A DNA stretch of 64,000 nucleotides from Acidiferrobacterales bacterium (GCA_947258385.1 CAMYII010000069.1:11106-75105), one strand, 5' to 3'; counted from the first letter of the stretch, positions 27,725 through 41,010 are shown. Translations and numbers: made by a program. Notes: generated from the sequence alone by a model not told the origin.

Positions 27725-27768
27725 ACTAGCAGGTTGCTGCAGGACTTGTTTTTCAGCAACCTGCTAGT
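27725..27768. terminator. Repeat family B hairpin between convergent genes (possible bidirectional terminator)
   Basis: ACTAGCAGGTTGCTG ... CAGCAACCTGCTAGT, perfect 15-bp stem overlapping the cytochrome stop codon. Confidence 0.7.
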
Positions 27769-28135
27769 TTTCCGGCGGCGGCATCAGCGAGGAAGGAATC
27801 GGCGCCCTGCGATACTGTTTCGTCGGCGCATAGTTGGTCGACAGATAATCCAGGATCAGATCCTCCGTCTTCGCATCGAACTGCCAAAGCCCCTGGGTCG
27901 CCTGCATCCAGCGGATGATATCCGTCCAGGTCTGCCGGTCGCCTTTCTGACTTAGGATAAACTTGGCCGAGTGGCAGATCGTACAATTGGTTTTTACCGT
28001 TTCGAAGCCCCGGTCGATGATGAGGCCGGTCTGTTCATCGATGCGTTTCTGATCGGTCGTCTTGGCGAACGTCATCGACGCCGACAGGCAAGACCAAAGC
28101 ACAACACCTATTAATGTTAATGATCGCATCTTCAT
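27764..28135 (-). CDS. Monoheme cytochrome c, SorB-like partner of sulfite dehydrogenase
   Basis: Signal peptide; NCTICHS; W...IRWMQATQGLW; 12 bp downstream of the sulfite oxidase gene. Confidence 0.85.
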   Translation of the reverse strand: MKMRSLTLIGVVLWSCLSASMTFAKTTDQKRIDEQTGLIIDRGFETVKTNCTICHSAKFILSQKGDRQTWTDIIRWMQATQGLWQFDAKTEDLILDYLSTNYAPTKQYRRAPIPSSLMPPPEN

Positions 28136-28147
28136 CGCATTACCGCC

Positions 28148-29470
28148 TCATACGACCCGCACGGCGATGCGATGACAGGCGTTGTTGAGGTACCCGCGCG
28201 GGTTCCATCCCGGCAATACCATGGGTTGGGAGGTGCCGGCGCTGTCCACCGCCCTGGCCCATACCTCATAATATCCGCTCTCCGGAAATTCGACCTCGGC
28301 CTGCCAGCGCTGCCAGGCGAGTCGGTTTTTCGGCGCATTGAGATCGGCCCTGGACCAGGTGGCACCGAAATCAATCGAGACATACATGCGCCTGACCCTG
28401 CGATCCCCCGCCCAGGCGTGACCCCTGAGCGCAAGCGCCTCGCTGCGTTGATGCAGGATGCCTGACTTGGGATAAGTAATAATCGACTTGACCGGCATGG
28501 ATTCGATGATGCACATATCCTCGTCGGCCACCCGCGTGCCCGGGGCCACCGACTTGCAGGGTACCCGGTAAGACTGTCCGGTCATCTTCGGTCCGTCATG
28601 GACCTCGCTTCTGATGACAATTTTTCTGAGCCATTTACCGGAGGTGGAGGCCGGCCAGCCCCCGCACACGAGCCGCAGCGGATAGCCGTTTAGATGGGGG
28701 ATGTCCTCGCCGTTCATGGCCCAGGCGATGAGCGTTTCGTTCTCCAGCGCTTTTGACATCGGCACCCCCCGGGAAATCGGCACCTTGTCGGGATTGCCGC
28801 TCAGATGCGTGTCTGCGCCGTAATAACCGATATAAACCGCATCGTCTTTGATACCGCAATGCGTGAGCACGTCCTTTAACCTCACCCCGGTCCAGGCCGG
28901 ACACCCGATCGCGCCGACAGTCCATTGATTGCCTTTGGCGGGCGGATTGAATTCGCTCCTGCCATTGCCACCGCACTCGATCTGAAGCCGATAGGTATAG
29001 TGCTTGAACTGCGCTTTCAGCTCATCGAGGGTGAAGCTCGTCGGGCGCTCGCAGGATTCACCGGCGATCTCAAGGGTCCAGGATTTCGGATCGATCTTCT
29101 GGCGCTCAGGGGGAACACCGTTGTTGCGCACGAACAGGCGATGCGCCGGCGTCACCTCGTCATCAAGCAAGTGCGCGGGTGTCTCCGCGTTGATCGGCCG
29201 GTCATTCAAGACGATCAGGTCCTCCTTTCCTGGGATCGCAAACGGCTCGTCCGTGCCGGCAAGCGCCGCCGGTATCAGGCCACCCGGCATCTTGTGGGCG
29301 AACGGGATATGGGCGCCCAACACTGCGCTCATGGCGAGCAGTCCGCTTTTTTTCAGGAAACCGCGCCGCGTAAGCGGATCGACCTCCCTGCCCCATAACA
29401 CGCGATCGGCCTTGACGGCGTCCTCGTCATACAGTTCATGGATACCGCGCTGGTGTTTCTTTCCGCTCAT
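28148..29470 (-). CDS. Sulfite oxidase-family molybdoenzyme (SorA-like sulfite dehydrogenase), Tat exported
   Basis: TRRGFLK Tat motif; FVRNNG, ECGGNGR (Mo-ligating Cys), WTGVRL, MNGE.IP.LNGYPLR, KWL. Confidence 0.92.
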   Translation of the reverse strand: MSGKKHQRGIHELYDEDAVKADRVLWGREVDPLTRRGFLKKSGLLAMSAVLGAHIPFAHKMPGGLIPAALAGTDEPFAIPGKEDLIVLNDRPINAETPAHLLDDEVTPAHRLFVRNNGVPPERQKIDPKSWTLEIAGESCERPTSFTLDELKAQFKHYTYRLQIECGGNGRSEFNPPAKGNQWTVGAIGCPAWTGVRLKDVLTHCGIKDDAVYIGYYGADTHLSGNPDKVPISRGVPMSKALENETLIAWAMNGEDIPHLNGYPLRLVCGGWPASTSGKWLRKIVIRSEVHDGPKMTGQSYRVPCKSVAPGTRVADEDMCIIESMPVKSIITYPKSGILHQRSEALALRGHAWAGDRRVRRMYVSIDFGATWSRADLNAPKNRLAWQRWQAEVEFPESGYYEVWARAVDSAGTSQPMVLPGWNPRGYLNNACHRIAVRVV

Positions 29471-29900
29471 CGTAGATCTCCCACCTGAATGCAACTGCGA
29501 AGATGAAGGTTTTCTGTTTCCCCTACACCGTAGGTTAACAGCGCGAAAGCGAATTTATTTAATCGAATTTGTTACCGAGCCATAAGAAACTTAAATGCCT
29601 AAGGCGGAATAAAAAAGCATGTCGGATTACACATCGGGATTGTGACGAGGCATGTATCGACACGCTGTACCGCACCCAGGCGCATCGCCTAAAATGCCGG
29701 CAATCGTTGTCACGACGCGGACACGGCACCCGGGCGAGCGAGTTCGCCGCGGGGACACCCTTGCTTTCCGCCCCTCGAATTTATAATATCACTAAACTTG
29801 CGGTCTTTTCGGGACCTCATCGCTTACCGCGGTGAGATCCTCGCTCATTTGGGCGTATTCTGTCGTATGTGCACGCCGAGAATCGTTTAGAGGTGAAGCC

Positions 29901-31802
29901 ATGGCAGTCATTTCAAACAATGCCCGTCGATCCCTACCGCCAGCAAATGCGTTGGTTCTCTGTGTTCTACTATACAGTAACAGCCCCGGTGTCGAGGCGT
30001 CAATATCAGCCGCCGGCCCGAGCCCGCAGAGTGAGACACAGGCGGCTACGGGAGGCACTGAAGAGACACGAGTCCAGGCGAGCCATCAACACGTATCCAC
30101 GACAGACCACAAGGCGTTCAAGCAACTGAATCGTGAATTCAAAACCGGCCAGGAGGTCACCCGGGTCTGTCTTTCCTGTCATACCAAAGCGGCGAAACAG
30201 CTGCACAAGACCAAACACTGGCGCTGGGATTTTACCCACCCGCAAACCGGACAGGCACTGGGCAAGCGAAATATCGTCAACAACTTTTGCGGCTCGATCA
30301 CCACCAATTACGCCTTTTGCACCAGTTGCCACATCAGCTACGGCTGGAAGGATGCCAACTTCAACTTCACCTCCGAGGAGGATGTCGCCTGTATCGTCTG
30401 CCACGATACCACGGGCACTTACCGGAAGTTTCCGGTCGGCACGGGTCACCCAAACTTCGAGGATAATCCGCCGCAGTGCGGCACATGTCATGGCGAAGGC
30501 GACCCGAAGGCCGCGCTGGCAAAACTAAAGACTGCGCCCATCATAATACCGGGCGCCAACGGTGGCACCCCGGTAAGCTGCGATGGCTGCCACGGGGTCG
30601 CACCGCACAAAGGCAATGACCTGCTTAACGGCCATGTCAACAAGGTTGACTGCCAGCAGTGTCACGCAGTAGAACCGGATCCGAACAGCCTGACGGGCTG
30701 GAAAGGACCGGATCTGACGCGCATCGCGCGCAATGTCGGGCTGCCCAAGCGGCGCGACTGCGGGAACTGTCACTTCCATGGCGGCGGTGGCAACGCGGTC
30801 AAACACGGCGATCTCGACAACTCGCTCGTCAGTCCCAAAAAGGCGCTGGACGTGCACATGGATGAGGATGGACTCGACTTCACCTGCGCCACCTGTCACC
30901 GCACCGAAGGCCATGAGGTGCCCGGCAGCCGCTACGCGGGGCTTGCCAAGGACACGGCCGGCATCGTCATCCCGGGGCGCGAATTCAGTCACGCGAGCTG
31001 CGAATCCTGCCACGGTCTCACTCCGCACCCGCGCACGGTGAACAACAAGATGAACGACCACATCGGCAAGGTCGCCTGCCAGAGCTGCCACATTCCGGCC
31101 TTTGCCCGCGGCGGGGTTGCCACGCTGATCTCGTGGGACTGGTCGACCGCGGGAAAACTCGACGCAAACGGCAGGCCGCTCGTGGTGAAGAAACACGAGT
31201 ATTCGCTCTATGACGGCAAGAAGGGGGATTTCCTATTCGCCGAAAACGTCATACCGGAATACCACTGGTATAACGGTGAGGTCAGGTACACCCTGATCAA
31301 GGATACTGTCGACCCAAACCAGGAGGTCAAGATCAACGAGGTCAGCGGCAACCATGACGACCCCAAGGCGCGCATCTGGCCGTTCAAGGCCATGCGCGGC
31401 AAGCAGCCCTACGACAAGGGTAACAAAACATTGGTCGTGGCCCATCTGTTCGGCCACGATGACACTGCCTACTGGGAGAACTTCGATTGGGACAAAGCGA
31501 TCCGAACCGGCATGAGCGCAGCCGGCGCCCCCTACAGCGGCGAGTATGGTTTCGTGCGCACCATCATGTACTGGCCCATCACCCATATGGTGGCACCGAA
31601 GGAAGACGCCCTGGCCTGTGACGCCTGTCACAGCAAAAACGGCCGGCTCAAACACCTGACCGGCTTTTACATGCCCGGCAGGGATTCGAACCGGTGGCTG
31701 GAGCTCATCGGTTGGGCGGCGGTGCTGCTGGCCATCGCGGGCGTGCTCGTGCATATCGTTTGGCACGCGACCACCGTGCGTGCGAAGGGAAGGGGTCAGT
31801 GA
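29901..31802 (+). CDS. Octaheme tetrathionate reductase (OTR)-family multiheme cytochrome c with 11 CxxCH motifs and a C-terminal TM anchor
   Basis: STTDH..F..L, CLSCH..H.W, GKRN.VNNFC, CTSCH.SYGW, CHF.GGGG.AVKHGDLD, WDWSTAG, ITHMVAPKE.AL.C..CH; 11 CxxCH counted. Confidence 0.9.
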   Translation: MAVISNNARRSLPPANALVLCVLLYSNSPGVEASISAAGPSPQSETQAATGGTEETRVQASHQHVSTTDHKAFKQLNREFKTGQEVTRVCLSCHTKAAKQLHKTKHWRWDFTHPQTGQALGKRNIVNNFCGSITTNYAFCTSCHISYGWKDANFNFTSEEDVACIVCHDTTGTYRKFPVGTGHPNFEDNPPQCGTCHGEGDPKAALAKLKTAPIIIPGANGGTPVSCDGCHGVAPHKGNDLLNGHVNKVDCQQCHAVEPDPNSLTGWKGPDLTRIARNVGLPKRRDCGNCHFHGGGGNAVKHGDLDNSLVSPKKALDVHMDEDGLDFTCATCHRTEGHEVPGSRYAGLAKDTAGIVIPGREFSHASCESCHGLTPHPRTVNNKMNDHIGKVACQSCHIPAFARGGVATLISWDWSTAGKLDANGRPLVVKKHEYSLYDGKKGDFLFAENVIPEYHWYNGEVRYTLIKDTVDPNQEVKINEVSGNHDDPKARIWPFKAMRGKQPYDKGNKTLVVAHLFGHDDTAYWENFDWDKAIRTGMSAAGAPYSGEYGFVRTIMYWPITHMVAPKEDALACDACHSKNGRLKHLTGFYMPGRDSNRWLELIGWAAVLLAIAGVLVHIVWHATTVRAKGRGQ

Positions 31803-32258
31803 CGTGACGGTGCAGGATTTGGGTGAGGTTTAGCCTCTCTGGTACGGGATGCCGTACCGGGTGCACCATAACAGGCTGCTCACAGAGCTCAATGTGCGCG
31901 GCGTCTTTTACCCGTTGGTCGTCAAACGGGCGTGTCTCTGCACATCACCTTTGCCGAGAACCTGATTGGTTTAAGGGCATTCGCCATCTCTCCGCACCTC
32001 ACCACGGGCGTGCGCAAGCGATATCTTCCCACGAGGGAAAAGATGTTCGCAGTCGCAGGATTCTATCCCATGAGCATCTTTGACGGGGAGGATTACACCC
32101 ACTGAGATACGCAATCCGCGAAACACAATCCGCCACAACACCTGGTCTCTCTATGCTGCAAATCGCCATCACGCATGCATTTTTGGTTTGAGATTCCAGA
32201 GTCGCGCAACCATCCGACCGTTGATCTCTTCGAAAGATCTCCTACTATCTATTATTAG

Positions 32259-32302
32259 CAGGATGCTGAAAAAATCCGTGGAAGGACTTTTTCAGCATCC
32301 TG
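32259..32302. repeat. Repeat family B hairpin
   Basis: CAGGATGCTGAAAAA-ATCCGTGGAAGGAC-TTTTTCAGCATCCTG. Confidence 0.8.
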
Positions 32303-32406
32303 GCTAGAAAAATACGATCGCCCGTTCACAGCGTCTGATCTTGGATATCTTGCGCAAATAATGAGCGTATGCCGCCCAACAGCTGCTTTTCCGTGTCAAC
32401 AGATTT

Positions 32407-32420
32407 TTGACATAGATCAA
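32407..32420. promoter_or_regulatory. FNR-type box upstream of the diheme cytochrome
   Basis: TTGAC-ATAG-ATCAA (one mismatch to consensus), followed by an AT-rich -10-like region at about 32441-32448. Confidence 0.7.
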
Positions 32421-32484
32421 AGAAATTCGGGGGTATTGATTAATAATGAATACTAATGGTTCGTGTGGAACAGGAGGCCTGAAT

Positions 32485-33102
32485 ATGAAAATAAGGTTGC
32501 TTAGGGTTGCGGCTGTGTGCGCATTACTGGCAACAATGGGCATCGTACAAGCGGCCGGGAATATTGAGGCCGGGAAGAAAAAGGCAGCCAGTTGCAACAC
32601 CTGTCACGGAGAGGATGGGCAAGGCATTAATCCGACCCCGCCGCTGGCAGGTTTGACCGAGGAATACTTTACCCGGCAGATGAACGCCTATAAGACCGGT
32701 AAGCGTGAGAACGCGATGATGGAGGCGTTCGCGCGGCCGCTGAGCGACAAGGACCTCGCTGACATGGCGGCCTATTACGCCGCCCTGCCGAAACCCTGCG
32801 GAGATGGCGGTGCGCCTGCGCCGACAACGACAGGCACCGGCGAGGTGATCGGGGATATCGACGCCGGCAAGAGAAAGGCCGCCAAGGGCGGGGCATCGAG
32901 TTGTAACGGTTGCCACGGCCTCCATGGGCGGGGTGACCCGCTAAATCCCCGCATAGCAGGTCTGGCAACCGGATACTTTATCCACGAGATGAACGACTAC
33001 AAGACGGGTGCGCGCGAACATCTGATGATGCAAGTGGTCGTGCAGGACCTGAATGAAAAGGATATGGCGGATCTGGCGGCGTACTTTGCGTCGCTACGCT
33101 GA
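32485..33102 (+). CDS. Diheme cytochrome c4/c553-type
   Basis: AGGAGG RBS, signal peptide, CNTCH and CNGCH, each followed by P.(L/I)AG..Y..K.G.R..MM..D(M/L)AAY. Confidence 0.92.
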   Translation: MKIRLLRVAAVCALLATMGIVQAAGNIEAGKKKAASCNTCHGEDGQGINPTPPLAGLTEEYFTRQMNAYKTGKRENAMMEAFARPLSDKDLADMAAYYAALPKPCGDGGAPAPTTTGTGEVIGDIDAGKRKAAKGGASSCNGCHGLHGRGDPLNPRIAGLATGYFIHEMNDYKTGAREHLMMQVVVQDLNEKDMADLAAYFASLR

Positions 33103-33293
33103 AGACCGGCTGGCGCGTACGCTTCATCTGTATCCGTCGCAGAAATAGTCAATTCAACGTCGCGCCCGGGGTATGCAAGCCCGGACTTGCCCGAAGGGGT
33201 GCGCTGCTCCCTATGGGGAATCCCATGGCGTTGTGCCCGCGGCAATACCGCAGGGAATTCTTGTGCAACATAACGGCTGAGGAACGCGGTCTG

Positions 33294-33992
33294 TCAGCGA
33301 GCTGCGTTCGGCGTCGCACTCGCCTCGCATTGTTCTCCAGTCCATCCAGCGATTCGCTCCTTTTCCGCCTCAACAAAATCGCTGGCCAACATGGCCATCT
33401 CTTCGTAGAAGGGCAGTTCCGCCGCCTCGATGACCTTTTCGCAAAACGTAGGCACCCAACGGGCGAGATGCTTCTCGATGAACTCCTGTTCGATATGCTG
33501 GACGCGTCTCACCGTATCGAGATCGCTTTCGCGCCAGGCCTGCGCCTCCATGCCGGTAAGTGCCTGCATGAATTCCAGCTCAACACTGAGATGATCCGGT
33601 ATGACGGTATTGTCTGGCCGGTATTCAAAACCGACTGATTCGATAAAGCGTTTGACTTCGGCGGTTGACTGCCCCCAGAGTGATCCGCCCCCTCCTTCGA
33701 TATGAACGGACTCGTGGGGCGGAATATGTTTTCCGGGACCAACGAACAGCCGGGTATATTCCACCGCCAGATCGACAAGCAGTTGACTCTCGGAAAGGTT
33801 TCGAAAATCCGCCTCCAGCTCGACGCCGGCGCTGGCCAGGGCCGTGATTATCGTGGGTCTTCTGATCTGCTCGACGAGTTCGGCGCTCGGTGGTTCCCGG
33901 TAGACAGCAACCAGAAAACCATACATGTGACTGATCGCGGTGACCGTAGCGGCCATTTCCAAGGGCTCATCGGCCAGTCGTAGATCTCTCAT
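33294..33992 (-). CDS. TorD/DmsD-family molybdoenzyme maturation chaperone
   Basis: EYTRLFVGP..PPHESV, PDHLSVELEFM, F..KHL..W. Confidence 0.92.
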   Translation of the reverse strand: MRDLRLADEPLEMAATVTAISHMYGFLVAVYREPPSAELVEQIRRPTIITALASAGVELEADFRNLSESQLLVDLAVEYTRLFVGPGKHIPPHESVHIEGGGGSLWGQSTAEVKRFIESVGFEYRPDNTVIPDHLSVELEFMQALTGMEAQAWRESDLDTVRRVQHIEQEFIEKHLARWVPTFCEKVIEAAELPFYEEMAMLASDFVEAEKERIAGWTGEQCEASATPNAAR

Positions 33993-34009
33993 GCGTCATC
34001 CCACGCGCG

Positions 34010-36550
34010 CTACGCCTTGGTGACGGATACGACGGTATCCATACAGCGCTGTTGACCGGTTATCGGTTCGGGCGTGTTGGGTATGATCCAGTTCGGGTTC
34101 ACGCCATTGCTACGCCACCACTTGGTCGCCAGCCTTGGGTTTTCGTCAACCCCGGTGGGCGATTTGGTTCCTGATGCATAGCGCCCGCTCTGCCAGTGCC
34201 CACAGTGATAGGCAACGGCAATCACGCCGGGCACGACCGAGGGCGTCACGTGCACTACCGTTTTGAGCTCGGCGATACTGGACCTGACCTGCACGACGTC
34301 TCCGTCCTTGATGCCCCGGGCCAGCGCCGTTGCCGGATTCATCCAGGCAGGGTTGTCGTGATAAATCTCGCTCAACCACTTGCAGTTCTGCGTACGCGAA
34401 TTGGTGTGCACGTTGACCTTATAGGTGGTCAAGACCAACTCATCGGGCCGCATTCTCTCATGCTCGGGAACCGCTATGTAGGTCGGAAGCGGGGAGAACC
34501 CTTTGTCCTTTAAGAGAGTGGAATAGATCTCAAAATGACCCGACTTGTTCAGCACGTCGGGATGGAACCCGGCATAGACCCTGCCCCCTATCCTCTGACC
34601 GACATAGCCCTTGTGCGCATCCTTGGTGCGCGTATAGCCGTTTCGCTCCGCTGCCTCGCGGCTTCTGGCCCCGGACTTCTTCCAATTCCAGTAAACGTCT
34701 GTCGCTGCGTCTAAGATGACGTCCTCATGATTCACATCCTTCGATGAGATCCTTCTCTTATAGCCGTAGTATTCCGGCCTGGCATTGACATCGAACCAGA
34801 CGCCATTGCGTTTCATGTACTCAAAACCACCGGCTTGTTTGACTCCAGGCGTCATCTCGCAGGATTGCCGGACGAAATCCCTGGCAGAATCGAAGCCCAG
34901 CGGAAATCCAAGCCGTTGCGCCAGATCGCAACACACGTCCTTGAAGTCCCGCGCCTCGCCCAGCGGTTCCACCAGGGGCTGACGGATATAATACTCGGGA
35001 ATCTGGTTCGGGCCGATGTGGTCTTCCCAGTCCCACCGTTCCAAGTAGGTGGCGTCCGGCAGAATGAGATCGGCCAGGGCGGCGGACTCGTCATAAAACG
35101 GGCTCACACAGACGGTGTAGGGCAGTAGCGTCTCATTTTCCAGGATGGAGATATTTTCCAGGACTTCACCGTTGCTGTAGGCGGGATTGTGGCAATACCA
35201 CATATAGACATCCGGCCGTCCCATCCGGCCGTCCTTGATCACCTTGAGTATCTGATGGCTGACATGGTGGTGAGGGAAGGCCGCTTGCCCCTTAAAGCCA
35301 TCCAGTATCTTTAACTTCTTTGCCCTGGGTCTGCGCTTCGGTCCGCGCGGATACCTCCACTGCGCCTTTACGGCCCGGCATCGGCCGCCGGGGTTGTCGA
35401 TGTTTCCCGTAATCGCGGCCAGCAGTTGGATGGCGCGCTCGGTTTCGACGCCGTTGTAGTGCGCGGCCGCGCCGCGATAACTGATGACGACGGCAGGCTT
35501 CGCATTGGCGAACTCATGCGCGATGGTCCAGATTTTTGCCACCGGGACGCCACTGACCTCCTCCGCCCATTCCGGGGTGTATCGCGCCAGATGGTGCTTG
35601 AGCGTCGCAATCTTTTCACCGATAGACGCGCGCGGATTTAGTGTTACTTTGCAGTATTTGAGGAACTGCTCACCTTCGCCTCGGTACAGGCCGGCATTCA
35701 CGATGATGTGGCACATCGCGAGGACAACGGCGCCATCGGTGCCGGGCCTCACCGGCACCCACTGACTTGATTTGGCGACGGTATTGGCAAGTCTCACATC
35801 GAACGTTACTAGCCGCACGCGGCGATCCACAATGGCATTGACCAGCCGTTGTGCCAGCGGAATATGGTTCGAATGGGCTTCCACACAATTACTGCCAAAA
35901 TTGAGCACATAACTGGTTTCGTCAAAATCCCAGTTATCGTCCTGGTTGCCCCAGGTCAGCTCCTGGGCAATCCATTTGCCGCTTTGGCTGGTGCTGGCGT
36001 GGTTGCCGATGGTCGCGGTGCCGTAGGCCGCGAGAAATGATTGTATCATCGCGTAGGCGCTTCCTTCCATCCGGCCATAATGGAACATGAACTTTTCCGG
36101 CTGCTCTTTCTCGCGGAGCACCTTCAGCCGGCCGGTGAGGTCCGCAAGCGCTTCGTCCCAGGAGATCTGCTGCCATTTCCCTTCGCCACGGCGCCCCACA
36201 CGCTTTAGAGGGTATAAAATCCGGTCAGGATCATTGACCTGGTTGACACCGGCCTGACCCTTCGCGCACATCTTGCCCAGGGTCCTTATCGAGCGGGGCT
36301 GGCCTTCCACTTTGACGACCCGGCCGTCCTCGACATAGCCAATGGCGGGGCAGCGGGTGACACATTGCCAGCACGCAGTCGGAATGGCCTTGCGCGGACA
36401 TCCCCGGGTCGGAGAGAAATCCTTGCCCCCCCATTCGAGAAACCGGGTCGGCTGCGCCAGGGCCTCTTTGCCAACGAGCATTGTGGTCGCCGCCGCAGTC
36501 CCCAGCTTCATAAAATCTCGACGATTAAACATGATCTTTCCCTTCCTCAT
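34010..36550 (-). CDS. Mo/W-bisPGD oxidoreductase catalytic subunit (PsrA/PhsA/SrrA/TtrA/ArrA-related), Tat exported
   Basis: NRRDFMK Tat motif; CWQCVTRC..C [4Fe-4S]; DPDRILYPLKRVG.RGEGKW..ISWDEAL; PGTDGA; ADLILPDATYLERWD; MNP.TA..GI.DGD. Confidence 0.9.
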   Translation of the reverse strand: MRKGKIMFNRRDFMKLGTAAATTMLVGKEALAQPTRFLEWGGKDFSPTRGCPRKAIPTACWQCVTRCPAIGYVEDGRVVKVEGQPRSIRTLGKMCAKGQAGVNQVNDPDRILYPLKRVGRRGEGKWQQISWDEALADLTGRLKVLREKEQPEKFMFHYGRMEGSAYAMIQSFLAAYGTATIGNHASTSQSGKWIAQELTWGNQDDNWDFDETSYVLNFGSNCVEAHSNHIPLAQRLVNAIVDRRVRLVTFDVRLANTVAKSSQWVPVRPGTDGAVVLAMCHIIVNAGLYRGEGEQFLKYCKVTLNPRASIGEKIATLKHHLARYTPEWAEEVSGVPVAKIWTIAHEFANAKPAVVISYRGAAAHYNGVETERAIQLLAAITGNIDNPGGRCRAVKAQWRYPRGPKRRPRAKKLKILDGFKGQAAFPHHHVSHQILKVIKDGRMGRPDVYMWYCHNPAYSNGEVLENISILENETLLPYTVCVSPFYDESAALADLILPDATYLERWDWEDHIGPNQIPEYYIRQPLVEPLGEARDFKDVCCDLAQRLGFPLGFDSARDFVRQSCEMTPGVKQAGGFEYMKRNGVWFDVNARPEYYGYKRRISSKDVNHEDVILDAATDVYWNWKKSGARSREAAERNGYTRTKDAHKGYVGQRIGGRVYAGFHPDVLNKSGHFEIYSTLLKDKGFSPLPTYIAVPEHERMRPDELVLTTYKVNVHTNSRTQNCKWLSEIYHDNPAWMNPATALARGIKDGDVVQVRSSIAELKTVVHVTPSVVPGVIAVAYHCGHWQSGRYASGTKSPTGVDENPRLATKWWRSNGVNPNWIIPNTPEPITGQQRCMDTVVSVTKA

Positions 36551-37503
36551 AGCCCGATCGGATAGGTAATCTGCCCGGCCGTCACCACGACATAACGCAA
36601 CATGAACCCGCCGATCAGCACGGCCACCGGCATGAACACCTCGAGGCTGCGGTGTACCTCAAAGGTTTTCTGGTAAAGCAACCTGGGCAGAATCAGAAAC
36701 AGTTCGATCACCGCCGGTATCAGAAGTCCGAGCAATACCACCCAAAGCCAGAACGTAGATGCCAGGGGGCCTCCCGCCAGAATGACCGAAATGGCGTGCT
36801 TGACACTGCCGATCGTTAGATGGGCGTACATGATGAACAGCAAGAGCACCAGCGATTCCAGAGCAATCAGCAAAATATCCGTGGCGGTCAACAGGTAGCC
36901 GCTTTCGCGGTACCGGTGTTCCGCCTCCGGATCCCCTTTTCGGTGCAATATGGCCCACGCCAGCATGATGCCGGCGATCCCGGTGGACAACGATGACAAC
37001 AGGAACAGCATCGCCAGGATGGGCGAGTTCCAGAAGGGCCGCGAGGGCATGGCGCCCAGCAACACGCCAGTATACACGGCCACACCGATACCAAGCGGCA
37101 CGCACACCCACGCCAGGAGCCTTCTCGGCCTATCCCACTTATCGCCGGGGGCCGCGTTTCTCGGGAGGAAAGTGGCCGCATACAGAATGCTGATCCCGAT
37201 AAAAAAGGTCAGCAGCCAGGTCCCGATGGACATGGGCGACAAGTTGATAACCCTGTAAAGGTTAATCCACCGGAACCAGAGGCCCACGTGAAAAGTACCC
37301 AGCTCAAAAATCAGCAGGAAGCAGCCGATGCTGACTGGAATCGGAGCAATGAAAGCGCCATAACGCGCAATGTTGAAGTAGGTCCCGGAAGGTCCGCTGC
37401 GCAACAGCACCGAGGCGCTGGTAGCCAGGGCACCGGCGCCCATGCCGGCGAGGAACAGATAACTGATCACCGGCAGACTCCACGTTAATTCTTCGCCGTG
37501 CAT
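36547..37503 (-). CDS. NrfD/PsrC-family quinol-interacting membrane anchor
   Basis: W.LPVISYLFLAGMGAG, SPMSIGTW, YTGVLL..RPFWN, GG..LRY. Confidence 0.93.
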   Translation of the reverse strand: MHGEELTWSLPVISYLFLAGMGAGALATSASVLLRSGPSGTYFNIARYGAFIAPIPVSIGCFLLIFELGTFHVGLWFRWINLYRVINLSPMSIGTWLLTFFIGISILYAATFLPRNAAPGDKWDRPRRLLAWVCVPLGIGVAVYTGVLLGAMPSRPFWNSPILAMLFLLSSLSTGIAGIMLAWAILHRKGDPEAEHRYRESGYLLTATDILLIALESLVLLLFIMYAHLTIGSVKHAISVILAGGPLASTFWLWVVLLGLLIPAVIELFLILPRLLYQKTFEVHRSLEVFMPVAVLIGGFMLRYVVVTAGQITYPIGL

Positions 37504-37505
37504 CG

Positions 37506-38261
37506 CTACCTCCTCTCCTTTTTCGATCGGTGGGTGTTCACGTGAATGTACTGGCCGGTATAGTGGATGTCGTGCTCGTCGGAATCGTCCGCGCCGATGT
37601 AGAACACATTTGGTTGCGTGCCCATTTCCTTCCTCAACACCGTAACCGCGTTGTGCGCGATGAGCTTGGAGATTTCACTGCCTGACGCGTTCACATCGCC
37701 GAAGATGCGCGCACGCCCCACACAGGTATTCACACAGGCGGGAACCAGCCCTTGGCTTATGCGATGCACACAGAAATCACACTTGTCGGCCGTGCCCGTA
37801 ATCGGGTTCAAGAAGCGGGCATCATAAGGACAGGCTTGAAGACAATACTTGCACCCGATGCACATGTTCTTGTCTATGACGACGATGCCATCCCGCCGCT
37901 TGTACGTCGCGCCGGTAGGACACACGCGGACGCACGGTGGCTCCGAACAGTGGTTGCACAGCCGCGGCAGGAAGGTCCGTTGCGCAAAGGGGTGGTCCCC
38001 CTTTTCGGTATACTCCACCCACGATCTGTTTACCCCCAGCGGCACGTCGAACTCGCTTTTGCACGCGACCGTGCAGGCGTGGCATCCGACACAGCGGCGG
38101 GCGTCGATGAGCATTCCGTACTGGACTGCGCGCTTGGGGGCGGCGGCGCGCGCGGCGGCGGGTAAGGCGGCCGCGCCGGCGGCCGCCGCGGTCGCGACGC
38201 CCAGCCGCTCCATGAATTTCCGGCGGCCGCGCTTGCGTTTCATGGTTCTGGCAGACATCAT
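37506..38261 (-). CDS. 4Fe-4S electron-transfer subunit (TtrB/PsrB/NrfC-like) with Tat-like signal
   Basis: GRRKFM; CVGCHACTVAC, CNHCSEPPCVRVCP, CIGCKYCLQACP, KCDFC..PACVNTC. Confidence 0.93.
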   Translation of the reverse strand: MMSARTMKRKRGRRKFMERLGVATAAAAGAAALPAAARAAAPKRAVQYGMLIDARRCVGCHACTVACKSEFDVPLGVNRSWVEYTEKGDHPFAQRTFLPRLCNHCSEPPCVRVCPTGATYKRRDGIVVIDKNMCIGCKYCLQACPYDARFLNPITGTADKCDFCVHRISQGLVPACVNTCVGRARIFGDVNASGSEISKLIAHNAVTVLRKEMGTQPNVFYIGADDSDEHDIHYTGQYIHVNTHRSKKERR

Positions 38262-38305
38262 TTTCTCCGTTCGAAACCCGTTTGGACCCATAATCTCAAG
38301 CTCAA

Positions 38306-38346
38306 AGTATAGACAGAGCTCGAACATGTTTATTGATAAAGATCAA
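38306..38346 (-). promoter_or_regulatory. Class II FNR-dependent promoter of the molybdoenzyme operon
   Basis: Perfect TTGAT-AAAG-ATCAA at 38333-38346; minus-strand TATACT at 38311-38306 places the box near -41.5. Confidence 0.85.
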
Positions 38347-38939
38347 TTTCTCGCAACTTTCAATTCATCCGATCCAGATCAATCCGTCAGGAATCCATCG
38401 GCGGGCCAGACAAGCGCTGCTATCATGGTGAGTTCAACCCGCAAGCGTCTCCGATCCACCGCCTCCGGCGCGACATGGCGCGGTGACATGCGCCGAGGCG
38501 TCGTTCCCTACCGCATGGTGTCGCACCGAGTCGACCATGTGCGGCCGGGTCTCAACGAAACCCGCGATACAAACAACAGGACATCCACTCCGACTTGCCC
38601 CCGGGGCATAAGCGAAGATGCGCAGCAGCGTCGCCCGGGGCCCACCCCGTATGCCAGTGCCGCGATCTTCTTTCCGGGAAACCAAGAGCGCTTCTGATCC
38701 GACGGTCGGGCTTGACCAGGGCAAAGGCTACCGCCATGATCAACCGCCAGTGCCCTTGCGAAATGCCACCTGCCCGGGCCGTTATGGCGGCCTTGTTCGT
38801 CCAGCGATTTGCGGTTGGGTAACCGCGCAAATCTTCCACTCGTTGCAGGTCATGAAAGTTTGATGGGCAGGGACTGATTTGAATGATAATGTGAACCGTA
38901 CTATGCTTGGCGTGTTCCCCTGGAGCAGGAGGTTTTATT

Positions 38940-39269
38940 ATGAAAAGAACAGTCCCTATCGTGGCAGGTGTATGTTTGTGCCTGGCGGCGATAGGCACCG
39001 CCCTGGCGGCCGGGGACGCCAAACTTGGTGAAAAGCAGGCATCCAGTTGCAATGGTTGCCACGGGGCGGACGGGCGGGGCCAGGGCCCCAATCCACCGCT
39101 GGCCGGCATGAAAGAGGCGTACTTTATCCAGCAGATGAATGATTACAAGTCTGGCGCCCGTTCCCATCTGTTTATGCAAAGGCTCGCGCAGGGGCTGAGC
39201 GATCCGCATATCGCCAACATGGCGGCCTATTATGCCTCGCTCCCACCGCCTTCTGGAAAGGGCAAGTGA
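38940..39269 (+). CDS. Monoheme cytochrome c553-type
   Basis: AGGAGG RBS, signal peptide (ALA), CNGCH, PPLAG..YKSGAR..MAAYYASL. Confidence 0.9.
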   Translation: MKRTVPIVAGVCLCLAAIGTALAAGDAKLGEKQASSCNGCHGADGRGQGPNPPLAGMKEAYFIQQMNDYKSGARSHLFMQRLAQGLSDPHIANMAAYYASLPPPSGKGK

Positions 39270-39369
39270 AAGGTGAAGAACCGCATTTAATTCCATGAAT
39301 CATGGTTGATGCGATGTTTCTGCAACAATACAACCATTAGGTATTGTGTGAGGGATTGAGAAAGGAAAA

Positions 39370-39741
39370 ATGATGTCGCGCAAACAGACAATGACCGCCG
39401 TTGCCCTGATAGCGAGCGTGCTGGGTACAGGGTGTGCAAAGGAGATCAGTTTCAGCAAGGATGTAAATCCGATCCTGCAAAAGAGTTGCCTGCCCTGTCA
39501 CAGCGTCTGGGGTCCCGGCTATGCCGCCACTGGTCTTAGTCTGGAAAGCTACGACAGCCTCATGAAGGGCACGAAATTTGGCGCTGTCACCAAACCGGGT
39601 TTCAGTGGAGCCAGCGCCCTTGTGATCTTCGTGGAATACGACCACCAACCCGTCAACATGCCCCTCGGCCAGAAGCGGTTAACGCCGGAGGAGATCAAGC
39701 TCATCAAGAAATGGATCGATCAAGGCGCGAAAAATAACTAG
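39370..39741 (+). CDS. Monoheme cytochrome c lipoprotein (Planctomycete cytochrome C-like domain)
   Basis: Lipobox-like GTGC; ISFSKDVNPIL..SCLPCH, GLSLESY..L.KG, MP..L..EEI..I.KWIDQGA. Confidence 0.82.
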   Translation: MMSRKQTMTAVALIASVLGTGCAKEISFSKDVNPILQKSCLPCHSVWGPGYAATGLSLESYDSLMKGTKFGAVTKPGFSGASALVIFVEYDHQPVNMPLGQKRLTPEEIKLIKKWIDQGAKNN

Positions 39742-39837
39742 AACCCACCCCTTGGCGTTGTGGAACCAGCGCAGAGGTCGCGGACAAAGCAAAAACGCCA
39801 TATTTTGAAGTATTCTCGGCGTCTTTGCGGTGAACCC
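39739..39837. repeat. Repeat family A, copy 3 (internally deleted)
   Basis: TAGAACCC..CCCTTGGCGTTGTGGAAC..CGCAGAGGTCGCGGA..TATTTTGAAGTATTCTC; starts at the TAG stop codon. Confidence 0.8.
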
Positions 39838-39987
39838 TCATACAAGGCTTTTCCGCTGAAATATTAACTTTCAATGCAGAGGCGCCAAGATGCATCGTTA
39901 GCATCACCCAAGGTGTATTCGATAGGCGCATCACCATGTATACTGCCAGGCAGCCGGTGACGGGATGCGCCACGCTGCCGTGACGAG

Positions 39988-41010
39988 GTGTCGAGAATTG
40001 ACTGTCAACCGCTCATGTCACAATCATGTCGGGAGTTCGTTATGCGCGAGCCTGCAGAATGCGTCGACGTCGTCAGCACACCACACGAACAGATCCAAAC
40101 CTTTCGACGGCATCGAAAGATCCTGCTGTCGTTTTCACGCGAACTGCTTCTGCTGAGTGGCATCGCTGCCGTCGCCAATCGGGCCTGCGACGCGGCAACA
40201 GAGCTCGCGGACGTAAGATTTGCGCGCATACTGCTGCTCGATCCCGCCGACAAAAACTTCAAACCCGTCGGTCACGCGGGATGGGATACCAGCGACCCTG
40301 CCAGCCTCGTTCAGGATGGGGATATGGATTCGGAAGCCGGCTATACCTACAGGGTGGACAAGCCGGTCATCATCACCAACACCCGTGACGAGGCACGGTT
40401 CAAGCTGCCGCCGGTTTACCAGGAACTTGGTATTGTGACCGCCATCAACCTGCCCATGACGGACAGCGACGAAGTGATCGGGGTCGCCTCCGTACAGCAT
40501 GACCAACCGCACAGCTGGACCGACGAAGAATGCGAAGCGCTGGAATTTCTGGCCAATATCACCGCGACCGCGATACGCCATTGCCGGGAAAGGCAGCGGG
40601 CCGATCAGCTCACGGAGGAACAGGCCAGCGCGCTGCATGAACTTCAGATCAAGAGCGCGGCCCTGGATGCGACCGTGGACATGGTCGTCATTACCGATCT
40701 CTACGGCAAGGTTGAATATGTCAATCCGGCGTTCGAGAAAGGCACGGGTTTCACGGGCGAGGAAGTCATTGGTACGAAATTCGACTTTCTCAAGTCCAAG
40801 GCGGCGACACCCGACATCTATCATGATATCTGGGACGCCTTGTTCGCCGGCCAGACCTGGAAAGGGGTAGTCGTGAACAACCACAAAGACGGGACGGATT
40901 ACCTCGAGGAACAGACCATCACCCCGATCACCGGTGAGGATGGGCAGGTGCATCACTTCATCGCCGTCAAGCGCAAGATCGATTTGGGCCGCGCGCAGTC
41001 CCATGCCTGA
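39988..41010 (+). CDS. GAF + PAS sensor protein with no output domain
   Basis: GAF (PVIITNT..E.RF, GIVTAINLPM, W..EE..L..LAN) then PAS (VVITD..G.VEYVNPAFE..TGF..EEVIG..W.G..N..KDG..HFIAVKR); start uncertain. Confidence 0.8.
   Translation: MSRIDCQPLMSQSCREFVMREPAECVDVVSTPHEQIQTFRRHRKILLSFSRELLLLSGIAAVANRACDAATELADVRFARILLLDPADKNFKPVGHAGWDTSDPASLVQDGDMDSEAGYTYRVDKPVIITNTRDEARFKLPPVYQELGIVTAINLPMTDSDEVIGVASVQHDQPHSWTDEECEALEFLANITATAIRHCRERQRADQLTEEQASALHELQIKSAALDATVDMVVITDLYGKVEYVNPAFEKGTGFTGEEVIGTKFDFLKSKAATPDIYHDIWDALFAGQTWKGVVVNNHKDGTDYLEEQTITPITGEDGQVHHFIAVKRKIDLGRAQSHA

Follow-up and report, generated by a model that had tools for sequence, protein, structure and literature searches.

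A serine-substituted molybdoenzyme paired with a diheme cytochrome c4, next to an 11-heme OTR, in a respiratory region of an Acidiferrobacterales genome

The DMSO reductase superfamily is divided into its main lineages according to the ligand that the protein provides to the molybdenum (Mo) atom (Cys, Sec, Ser, Asp or none). For complexes made of a Mo-bis(pyranopterin guanine dinucleotide) (Mo-bisPGD) subunit, an Fe-S subunit and an NrfD-type anchor, export by twin-arginine translocation (Tat), chaperone-assisted loading of the cofactor and an electron path from quinol through NrfD and the Fe-S clusters to Mo are established. In the accessible parts of the literature, Cys is the Mo ligand of PsrA, PhsA and SrrA, published trees show Cys throughout the Psr, Arr and Ttr enzymes, and in one survey the presence of the 'correct' ligand was screened for in each sequence (PMC10100899, PMC7331816). 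Swaps of the ligand have been investigated with engineered mutants and, as far as the available text goes, replacing the ligand Cys of NapA with Ser or Asp lowers turnover without abolishing it and tunes selectivity (PMC12769810). All OTR cytochromes are described, in the part of the source that was available, as having eight heme motifs and a catalytic, Lys-ligated heme 2 (PMC11024163). Here we analyse a stretch of 64,000 nt from an Acidiferrobacterales bacterium (GCA_947258385.1 CAMYII010000069.1:11106-75105; hereafter, the window), in which a region of ca. 13 kb (27764..41010) holds two real, rare variants of known families side by side: a molybdoenzyme with Ser at the position of the ligand Cys, encoded by genes in the order B-C-A-D, and an OTR with 11 hemes. 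The Ser enzyme, together with a diheme cytochrome c4 encoded beside it, is the part of most interest.

Subunit A of the molybdoenzyme (34010..36550, minus strand; 846 aa) is a Tat-exported Mo/W-bisPGD subunit with an FS0 motif, and its ligand loop reads NHASTSQ (35984..36004, minus strand) where the family has NHTSICE. Ser188, encoded by AGC at 35987-35989, aligned to the ligand Cys of ArrA, ArxA, PhsA and NapA, which bears out the Ser substitution that an earlier interpretation of this DNA, made from the sequence alone (the sequence-only reading), had claimed; by this alignment Ser188 is the candidate Mo ligand. The ligand pair was Cys-Glu in 118 of the 120 best homologues and Ser-Gln in the other two (P0001, 93% identity; P0002, 71%), while 75 shorter fragments gave Cys-Glu in 69 cases, an unreadable pattern in six and Ser-Gln in none. 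DNA scans for the Ser variant were limited to loops with Gln following the ligand and with exact flanks; independent Ser-Glu variants would escape them. They rendered one locus in the GTDB collection, L013, which belongs to a gammaproteobacterial metagenome-assembled genome (MAG) with 50% GC, and three in JGI metagenomes, two of which (L014 and L015) are 93-96% relatives of the window and were counted as one lineage, since their A sequences are identical where they overlap. The third JGI match (L016) was a chance match inside retrotransposon-like open reading frames (ORFs) and was dropped. The three Ser sequences stayed in one clade when 22 trait columns were removed (SH-aLRT 100). No report of a Ser-liganded member of the Psr/Arr/Ttr branch was found in the literature, mostly open-access, and the word 'serine' is absent from the accessible text of two of the main sources (PMC10100899, PMC7331816).

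Ser was acquired once, in a small lineage whose ends are 71% identical, and T185A, E189Q, H203Q and T227S came with it. The two Ser lineages have in common L78V, T185A, C188S, E189Q, H203Q, T227S and V512I, and at near-invariant columns where both leave the family they carry the same new residue in 7 of 10 cases, as compared with identities at 110 of 243 variable columns (45%); synonymous sites between the two lineages are saturated. The window lineage has added K162E, S165A, S166Y, K167A, K170Q, I187T, Y204D, H717N, S780A, Y788S, H818N and D828E, with cationic or hydrogen-bonding residues near the loop being lost through K162E, K167A, K170Q and Y204D (pocket assignments being based on alignments). 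The FS0 cysteines, K97, R160, H184, K192 and the cofactor-binding motifs, whose functional roles we presume, have been retained in A, as has the chaperone gene D. Comparison of A with L014 and L015 gives ratios of nonsynonymous to synonymous substitution rates (dN/dS) of 0.135 and 0.088, respectively; for its partners the ratio is 0.08 for B, 0.05 for C (against L015), 0.27 for D (against L014) and 0.17 for c4. Taken together, the dN/dS values, the retained motifs and the shared substitutions indicate that the gene of subunit A is maintained under purifying selection and that its pocket, after being rebuilt once, was altered further. The Ser codon, AGC or AGT, is one base from Cys; a pseudogene or a sequencing error was rejected as its source, since AGC or AGT is present in three loci with intact frames and dN/dS well below 1.

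Regarding its family, subunit A passed none of the NCBIfam cut-offs, the best match being PhsA (NF012032, score/cut-off of 352/694); the scores for ArrA (NF041714) and TtrA (NF011567) were 184/1600 and 104/1750. It also scored 294 versus 778 bits for TIGR02166, which stands for the Ser-liganded DmsA/DorA/TorA enzymes, and 178 versus a cut-off of 440 for QrcB. Its best PDB matches were Thermus PsrA (2VPW; E 1e-49) and ArrA, and the ESM Atlas returned generic molybdopterin clusters only. In a FastTree phylogeny of 78 rows, among which no TtrA, SrrA or AnrA reference was included, subunit A was deeply nested in a clade of 50 rows (support 99) that is distinct from those of PhsA/Psr and Arr/Arx, and no clade member among 37 representatives scanned reached a curated family cut-off. 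Of the 'Psr/Ttr/Srr-type' label given by the sequence-only reading, the architecture (A and B with an NrfD-type C, and Tat export) stands, whereas the family assignment is too loose for a separate, unnamed clade with scores far under the PhsA, ArrA and TtrA cut-offs. As placed by alignment and phylogeny, the parent of the Ser form is a large unnamed clade of Cys enzymes with the loop NHTS(I/V)CE, partly linked to arsenite-sensor genes, and is neither Psr nor Ttr nor, as far as testable, Srr. This clade includes an enzyme of Azoarcus sp. KH32C (pAZKH; WP_015451713.1) and many MAGs. Subunit A is 61-69% identical to its nearest Cys members, with which it has in common the B-C-A-D order and an FNR promoter. 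The Mo family is patchily distributed, being present in 3 of the 40 relatives searched and in 13 of 400 genomes of the class (E <= 1e-150).

AioX-like genes were found beside 7 of the 16 Mo-family loci whose neighbourhoods (up to 20 kb each) were counted, including the Azoarcus KH32C query locus, and the deeper branches of the parent clade adjoin AioX/S/R-like genes. No AioX was found in the fetched stretch of the six nearest Cys loci (61-66% identity), and no AioX homologue was found in the host genome. The closest sensor-linked relative seen is L047 (G394:C84), a B-C-A-D operon (59% identity) that has AioX/S/R-like genes and another S/R pair on its flanks. Another B-C-A-D locus of the Cys clade (L039:13131-18753) has six FNR-like boxes and an independent set of cytochromes consisting of a PSCyt1-like cytochrome, a five-heme protein and a monoheme protein. 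The Soe-like, arsenite-induced enzyme of Thioalkalivibrio was considered as the identity of A and rejected, as that enzyme lacks a Tat signal according to the accessible text (PMC6620896).

The operon that encodes subunit A starts with B, the Fe-S subunit with an N-terminal twin-arginine motif (37506..38327, minus strand; in reality it probably begins at 38291 or 38261, past the -10 hexamer), and continues with C, the NrfD/PsrC-family membrane anchor with eight predicted helices (36547..37503, minus strand), A itself, and D, a private chaperone of the TorD/DmsD type (33294..33992, minus strand). Facing D is the gene of the diheme cytochrome c4 (ORF 32446-33102, plus strand; likely start at 32485, after AGGAGG). 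The convergent arrangement of c4 and D is present in the window, in L014 and in the distant L013 (62% identity), which indicates that c4 travels with the Ser enzyme; among the 16 other Mo-family loci no diheme c4 was found, the single c4-like match being monoheme.

In promoters of FNR class II, the box TTGAT-N4-ATCAA lies ca. 21-22 nt before the -10 hexamer. The BCAD promoter (38306..38346, minus strand) has a perfect FNR box (38333-38346), a 21-nt spacer and TATACT, and the c4 promoter (32407..32447, plus strand) a box with one mismatch, also a 21-nt spacer and the -10-like AATAAT, both hexamers being 5/6 matches. In 7 of the 8 FNR-type promoters examined, relatives included, the hexamer matched best at a spacing of 21 nt. 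Both boxes are retained in the 93-96%-identical relatives (that at 32407 in L014 and that at 38333 in L015), and perfect boxes are also found upstream of B in four of the six nearest Cys loci (L039, L040, L042 and L044). Since the 4.5-Mb genome contains 212 one-mismatch sites, in addition to 17 perfect ones, the 32407 site alone could be due to chance. A second FNR-like site with two mismatches (38369-38382) lies 36 bp upstream of the perfect BCAD box, and the two could form a tandem. As judged from their anatomy, the BCAD and c4 promoters fit the FNR class II pattern and are predicted to be under FNR control. A generic scan for sigma-70 promoters and terminators in the region did not exceed the chance level.

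We tentatively favour, at somewhat short of an even chance, a periplasmic reductase that is induced by FNR, receives its electrons from quinol and has been retuned to O-atom transfer. At low oxygen, FNR would switch on BCAD and c4, as their promoter anatomy suggests; D would load Mo-bisPGD into A, and A and B would be exported by Tat and dock on the NrfD anchor C, so that electrons could run from quinol through C, the clusters of B and FS0 to Mo. One ancestral event rebuilt the Mo pocket, and the window lineage then lost cationic or hydrogen-bonding residues nearby; the Mo centre, O-ligated or unligated and still active, would have moved from the oxyanion chemistry of the parent towards O-atom transfer. 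The acceptor may be neutral or less anionic, for instance an S- or N-oxide. To a sulfur-oxidising autotroph such an enzyme would be an accessory reductase for low oxygen, and c4 would be its second electron partner. FNR induction, the direction of a reductase, ligation by Ser and the shift to a neutral O-transfer substrate are the steps that we infer here, and that they hold is only slightly less probable than the contrary. The last is suggested by the ligand-substrate pattern in the accessible literature (PMC10100899, PMC7331816), by the NapA ligand mutants, likewise seen in part (PMC12769810), and by the three lysines that have disappeared from the vicinity of the loop. The single origin of the Ser form, the low dN/dS of A, the new residues common to both Ser lineages, the retained cofactor motifs and chaperone gene, the convergent c4 and the FNR-type promoters speak for the reading as a whole, as do the sulfur enzymes encoded elsewhere in the genome.

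Several observations weigh against a retuned reductase. Subunit A of the window leaves 23 of 311 conserved columns, the family median being 3, and two Cys pairs have lower dN/dS values (0.044 and 0.078) than it does. The C-to-S, E-to-Q, H-to-Q, H-to-N and Y-to-S changes are also of the type that silences enzymes, and a quinol-fed reductase needs no c4. The Ser ligand loop of E. coli DmsA is not in register with S188, so that the sequence gives no support to calling the enzyme 'DMSO-reductase-like'. In L013, the 160 bp preceding c4 showed no FNR box. Finally, many distant members of the wider clade, among them 50%-cluster representatives such as P0246, P0249, P0252, P0254, P0255, P0261, P0263 and P0275, as well as others, have no Cys at the ligand column, which implies that the family readily yields ligand-less forms and suggests that ligand-less or non-catalytic MopB subunits may have arisen repeatedly in it.

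It can also be the case that the complex is a catalytically silent conduit, with A as a scaffold and ABC acting like QrcBCD or alternative complex III (ACIII) in passing electrons between quinol and c4, the monoheme cytochromes and the 11-heme OTR. This is a close rival of the retuned reductase, and we consider it possible though doubtful. The pocket changes would fit it, as they are isosteric and neutralising and were extended in the window lineage, and so would the recruitment of c4 along with the Ser change and the ligand-less forms so common in the wider clade; ActB itself is listed without Mo/W-bisPGD in the accessible part of one survey (PMC10100899). A silent subunit is at odds with a cofactor chaperone D that is kept and under selection, with the conserved cofactor-binding motifs, R160, H184 and K192, and with the same new residues at 7 of the 10 columns in both Ser lineages, which exceeds the 45% at variable columns that a dead site would be expected to give.

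Less likely, and in our opinion improbable, is that the enzyme carries out the same reaction as its Cys parent clade, on an oxyanion of As, Sb, Se or S, with Ser being tolerated or tuning the rate. Both the order of the operon and its FNR promoter were inherited without change from the nearest Cys loci, which would agree with it, as would the AioX-like genes beside 7 of the 16 family loci and the conservation of R160, H184 and K192. The fixation of Cys-Glu in 118 of the 120 homologues and 69 of the 75 fragments implies, on the other hand, that losing the ligand is usually not tolerated; five residues of the pocket changed at the same time, and the sensor gene AioX was found neither in the host genome nor beside the six nearest Cys loci.

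The sequence-only reading had joined OTR, c4, BCAD and sorAB into one integrated system, a claim that failed for sorAB and OTR when co-conservation was examined. SorB-like (27764..28135, minus strand), a monoheme cytochrome c, scored 35 bits for NF052246, below the cut-off of 93, and SorA-like (28148..29494, minus strand), a Tat-exported enzyme of the sulfite-oxidase family with its Mo-ligand Cys retained, was also below the SorA cut-off (247/600); with the sulfite-oxidase fold, the Mo-Cys and the monoheme neighbour present, SorAB is an ordinary, dispensable sulfite dehydrogenase. A close relative was detected in one marine metagenome run (X1), on which synteny was based, runs X2, X3 and X5 (short pieces) being excluded. 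One X1 contig (depth 19.8) goes from trpB2 to a 139-bp 3' remnant of sorB and then to the region upstream of otr, skipping 27905-29759 and carrying no sorA; on this one contig sorA is dispensable. Other X1 contigs contain part of otr, c4-D-A, C-B and the monohemes, and GAF-PAS. Neither otr nor sorA was found in any of the 16 Mo-family loci. OTR was found in 6 of 60 relatives, with eight hemes in all seven loci counted; the three Mo-family relatives (of 40) had no OTR, and the five OTR carriers present in both searches had no Mo family (no second genome of the genus of the window was in either set). No OTR match was found in the genome of the other Ser lineage, which is 69% complete and gives weak evidence. 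No FNR box with up to two mismatches was found between sorA and otr (best site, three mismatches).

These results indicate that the region is pieced together from respiratory genes with promoters of their own, around a conserved core of BCAD plus c4 under predicted FNR control, the cytochrome and sulfite genes near the Mo enzyme being mostly separate passengers. A single co-regulated sulfur-oxyanion circuit of SorAB, OTR, c4 and BCAD is thus very unlikely: the genes are adjacent, otr, c4, BCAD, the monohemes and GAF-PAS are all present in the close relative, and a role as sulfite reductase has been put forward for OTR (PMC12949373, accessible part), but sorA is missing from that relative, no FNR box precedes sorA or otr, neither gene accompanies the family in any of the 16 loci, OTR was not found in the incomplete second Ser genome, and OTR and the Mo family do not overlap among relatives. 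Other claims of the same reading were sustained: BCAD and c4 do have FNR-type promoters, the components connect periplasmic cytochromes c with the quinone pool, and both main enzymes deviate from their family patterns, neither falling in a characterised clade with these features.

The OTR gene (29832/29901-31802, plus strand; 633 aa from the ATG at 29901) passed TIGR04315 (632 bits, cut-off 375), and 11 heme motifs were counted in its product, which is thus the 11-heme variant that had been claimed. Its only PDB match, Shewanella 1SP3 (E 2e-113), aligns in two pieces flanking an insert of ca. 87 residues that constitutes a three-heme module between canonical hemes 3 and 4 (residues ~184-270; 30450..30710, plus strand). 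This insert matches the module of canonical hemes 5-7 in the same protein (residues 329-397; 30885..31091, plus strand), with 44% identity over 71 aa (E 2e-12) and the intervening His kept; OTR gained three hemes by duplicating that module. Among 119 other OTR hits, 113 have eight heme motifs, two carry the same insert (P0122, 70%; P0123, 61%), two reach 11 through an N-terminal extension and two are 16-heme tandems. The 16-heme tandem doubles and the 11-heme forms with an N-terminal triheme extension are P0124, P0125, P0176 and P0226. The catalytic heme-2 Lys (K122 in the window) is present in 118 of 118 aligned OTRs and the eight canonical motifs are all kept; an Arg before heme 2, found in 114 of the 118, has given way to Phe, Leu or Ile in the three OTRs with the insert. 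The 11-heme OTR is a second, independent variant, probably still catalytic, with a three-heme extension of its electron wire. Membrane anchoring was rejected as a novelty, as the C-terminal hydrophobic helix is ordinary (94 of 118 OTRs, that of the window included). A viral scan for OTR found nothing.

In the literature, mostly open-access, we found no report of an 11-heme OTR, while heme grafting in general has been described (PMC9250108, accessible part). The substrate of OTR is disputed, since the available text of one study gives it no role in tetrathionate respiration and suggests sulfite (PMC12949373), and otr is induced by tetrathionate according to the accessible part of another (PMC8528874). 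A divergent 10-heme OTR-like protein is encoded elsewhere in the host genome (G000:C65:51599-53233), with two added C-terminal heme motifs replacing the membrane helix.

The host genome (4.5 Mb, 100% complete, 58.5% GC) also encodes an 8-heme OTR, SoxB, two DsrA above cut-off, two RuBisCO-family genes, a Psr-like enzyme and a presumably Soe-like enzyme, so named by us from motif and context; no NarG above cut-off was found in it. The host is a probable sulfur-oxidising autotroph, and with SoxB, DsrA, the RuBisCO-family, Soe-like and Psr-like enzymes and the 8-heme OTR located elsewhere, its ordinary sulfur jobs are already covered. The two DsrA copies are both full (G000:C80:62530-63732 and G000:C106:18558-19748). 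Genome-wide, 33 open frames have at least three CxxCH motifs, one of them (G000:C33:20287-22071) having 18.

The 11 ORFs of the region were all found at their spans, and ORF, domain and motif scans agreed with the families, heme motifs and both FNR boxes proposed earlier. Of the 17 raw CxxCH strings in the region, one belongs to an Fe-S motif of B; the other 16 are heme motifs, and OTR accounts for 11 of these. Beyond the BCAD promoter lie a monoheme class I cytochrome c (38907..39269, plus strand), ca. 53-59% identical to either half of c4, and a PSCyt1-like monoheme cytochrome, a probable lipoprotein (39370..39741, plus strand) with three paralogues elsewhere in the genome. The GAF-PAS protein (39988..41010, plus strand) stops just past the PAS domain, is 92% identical in L015 (dN/dS 0.29) and may be a stand-alone sensor module; domain searches detected no output domain in it. 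Two dispersed REP-like short repeats sit between the units of the region, one between otr and c4 (32256..32310; 26 blastn matches in the genome) and the other at 39745..39829 (79 matches). The GC content of the region (55-60%) is near the 58.5% of the genome and gives no compositional sign of recent transfer.

A natural ligand swap with Cys sisters that are 66-69% identical provides a matched pair for the effect of the ligand on substrate and direction; if the enzyme is silent, it would represent an early step towards pseudo-enzymes of the ActB/QrcB type. The OTR is a clear case of growth of a multiheme cytochrome by duplication of its own heme module. The Ser lineage is rare, its parent clade has no known substrate, and the 13-kb island is not a conserved system. 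The two variants could be brought together in a more ambitious picture, which we consider unlikely as a whole: a selected Cys-to-Ser ligand switch in the otherwise all-Cys Psr/Arr/Ttr branch, leading either to new chemistry convergent on DMSO/TMAO reductases or to a nascent Qrc/ACIII-like quinol:cytochrome c conduit in mid-transition, with the newly recruited c4 wiring it to the OTR of self-duplicated hemes.

In comparison with known systems, A, B and C resemble PsrABC, PhsABC and SrrABC in having a Tat-exported Mo-bisPGD subunit with FS0, an Fe-S subunit and an NrfD anchor, and differ from them in the ca. 28-30% identity of subunit A, its separate clade, its Ser in place of Cys and the B-C-A-D order (no SrrA sequence being part of the comparison). 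In ArrAB and ArxAB (6CZ7; ArxA of Cereibacter pORIO3, L020) the H...C of the ArrA loop aligns with H184...S188; A differs in its low ArrA score, its separate clade, its Ser and the absence of sensor genes at the window locus. TtrA, besides its very different score, is a subunit of ca. 1000 aa as opposed to the 846 aa of A. The direct parent, the unnamed NHTS(I/V)CE clade, has Cys-Glu and no adjacent diheme c4, and is itself uncharacterised. DmsA, DorA and TorA have Ser in common with A as candidate Mo ligand, and dmsABC is under FNR-type control, but they belong to another lineage (26% identity) with the loop out of register, so that any likeness would be convergent. Shewanella OTR (1SP3) shares the eight heme motifs and the heme-2 Lys with the OTR of the window and has no internal three-heme duplicate. 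Lastly, QrcBCD and ACIII (ActB/ActC) are like ABC in combining a MopB-fold subunit, an Fe-S subunit and an NrfD anchor with c-type cytochromes nearby; they do without the Mo cofactor, which QrcB lacks, whereas the window locus keeps both the chaperone and the cofactor motifs.

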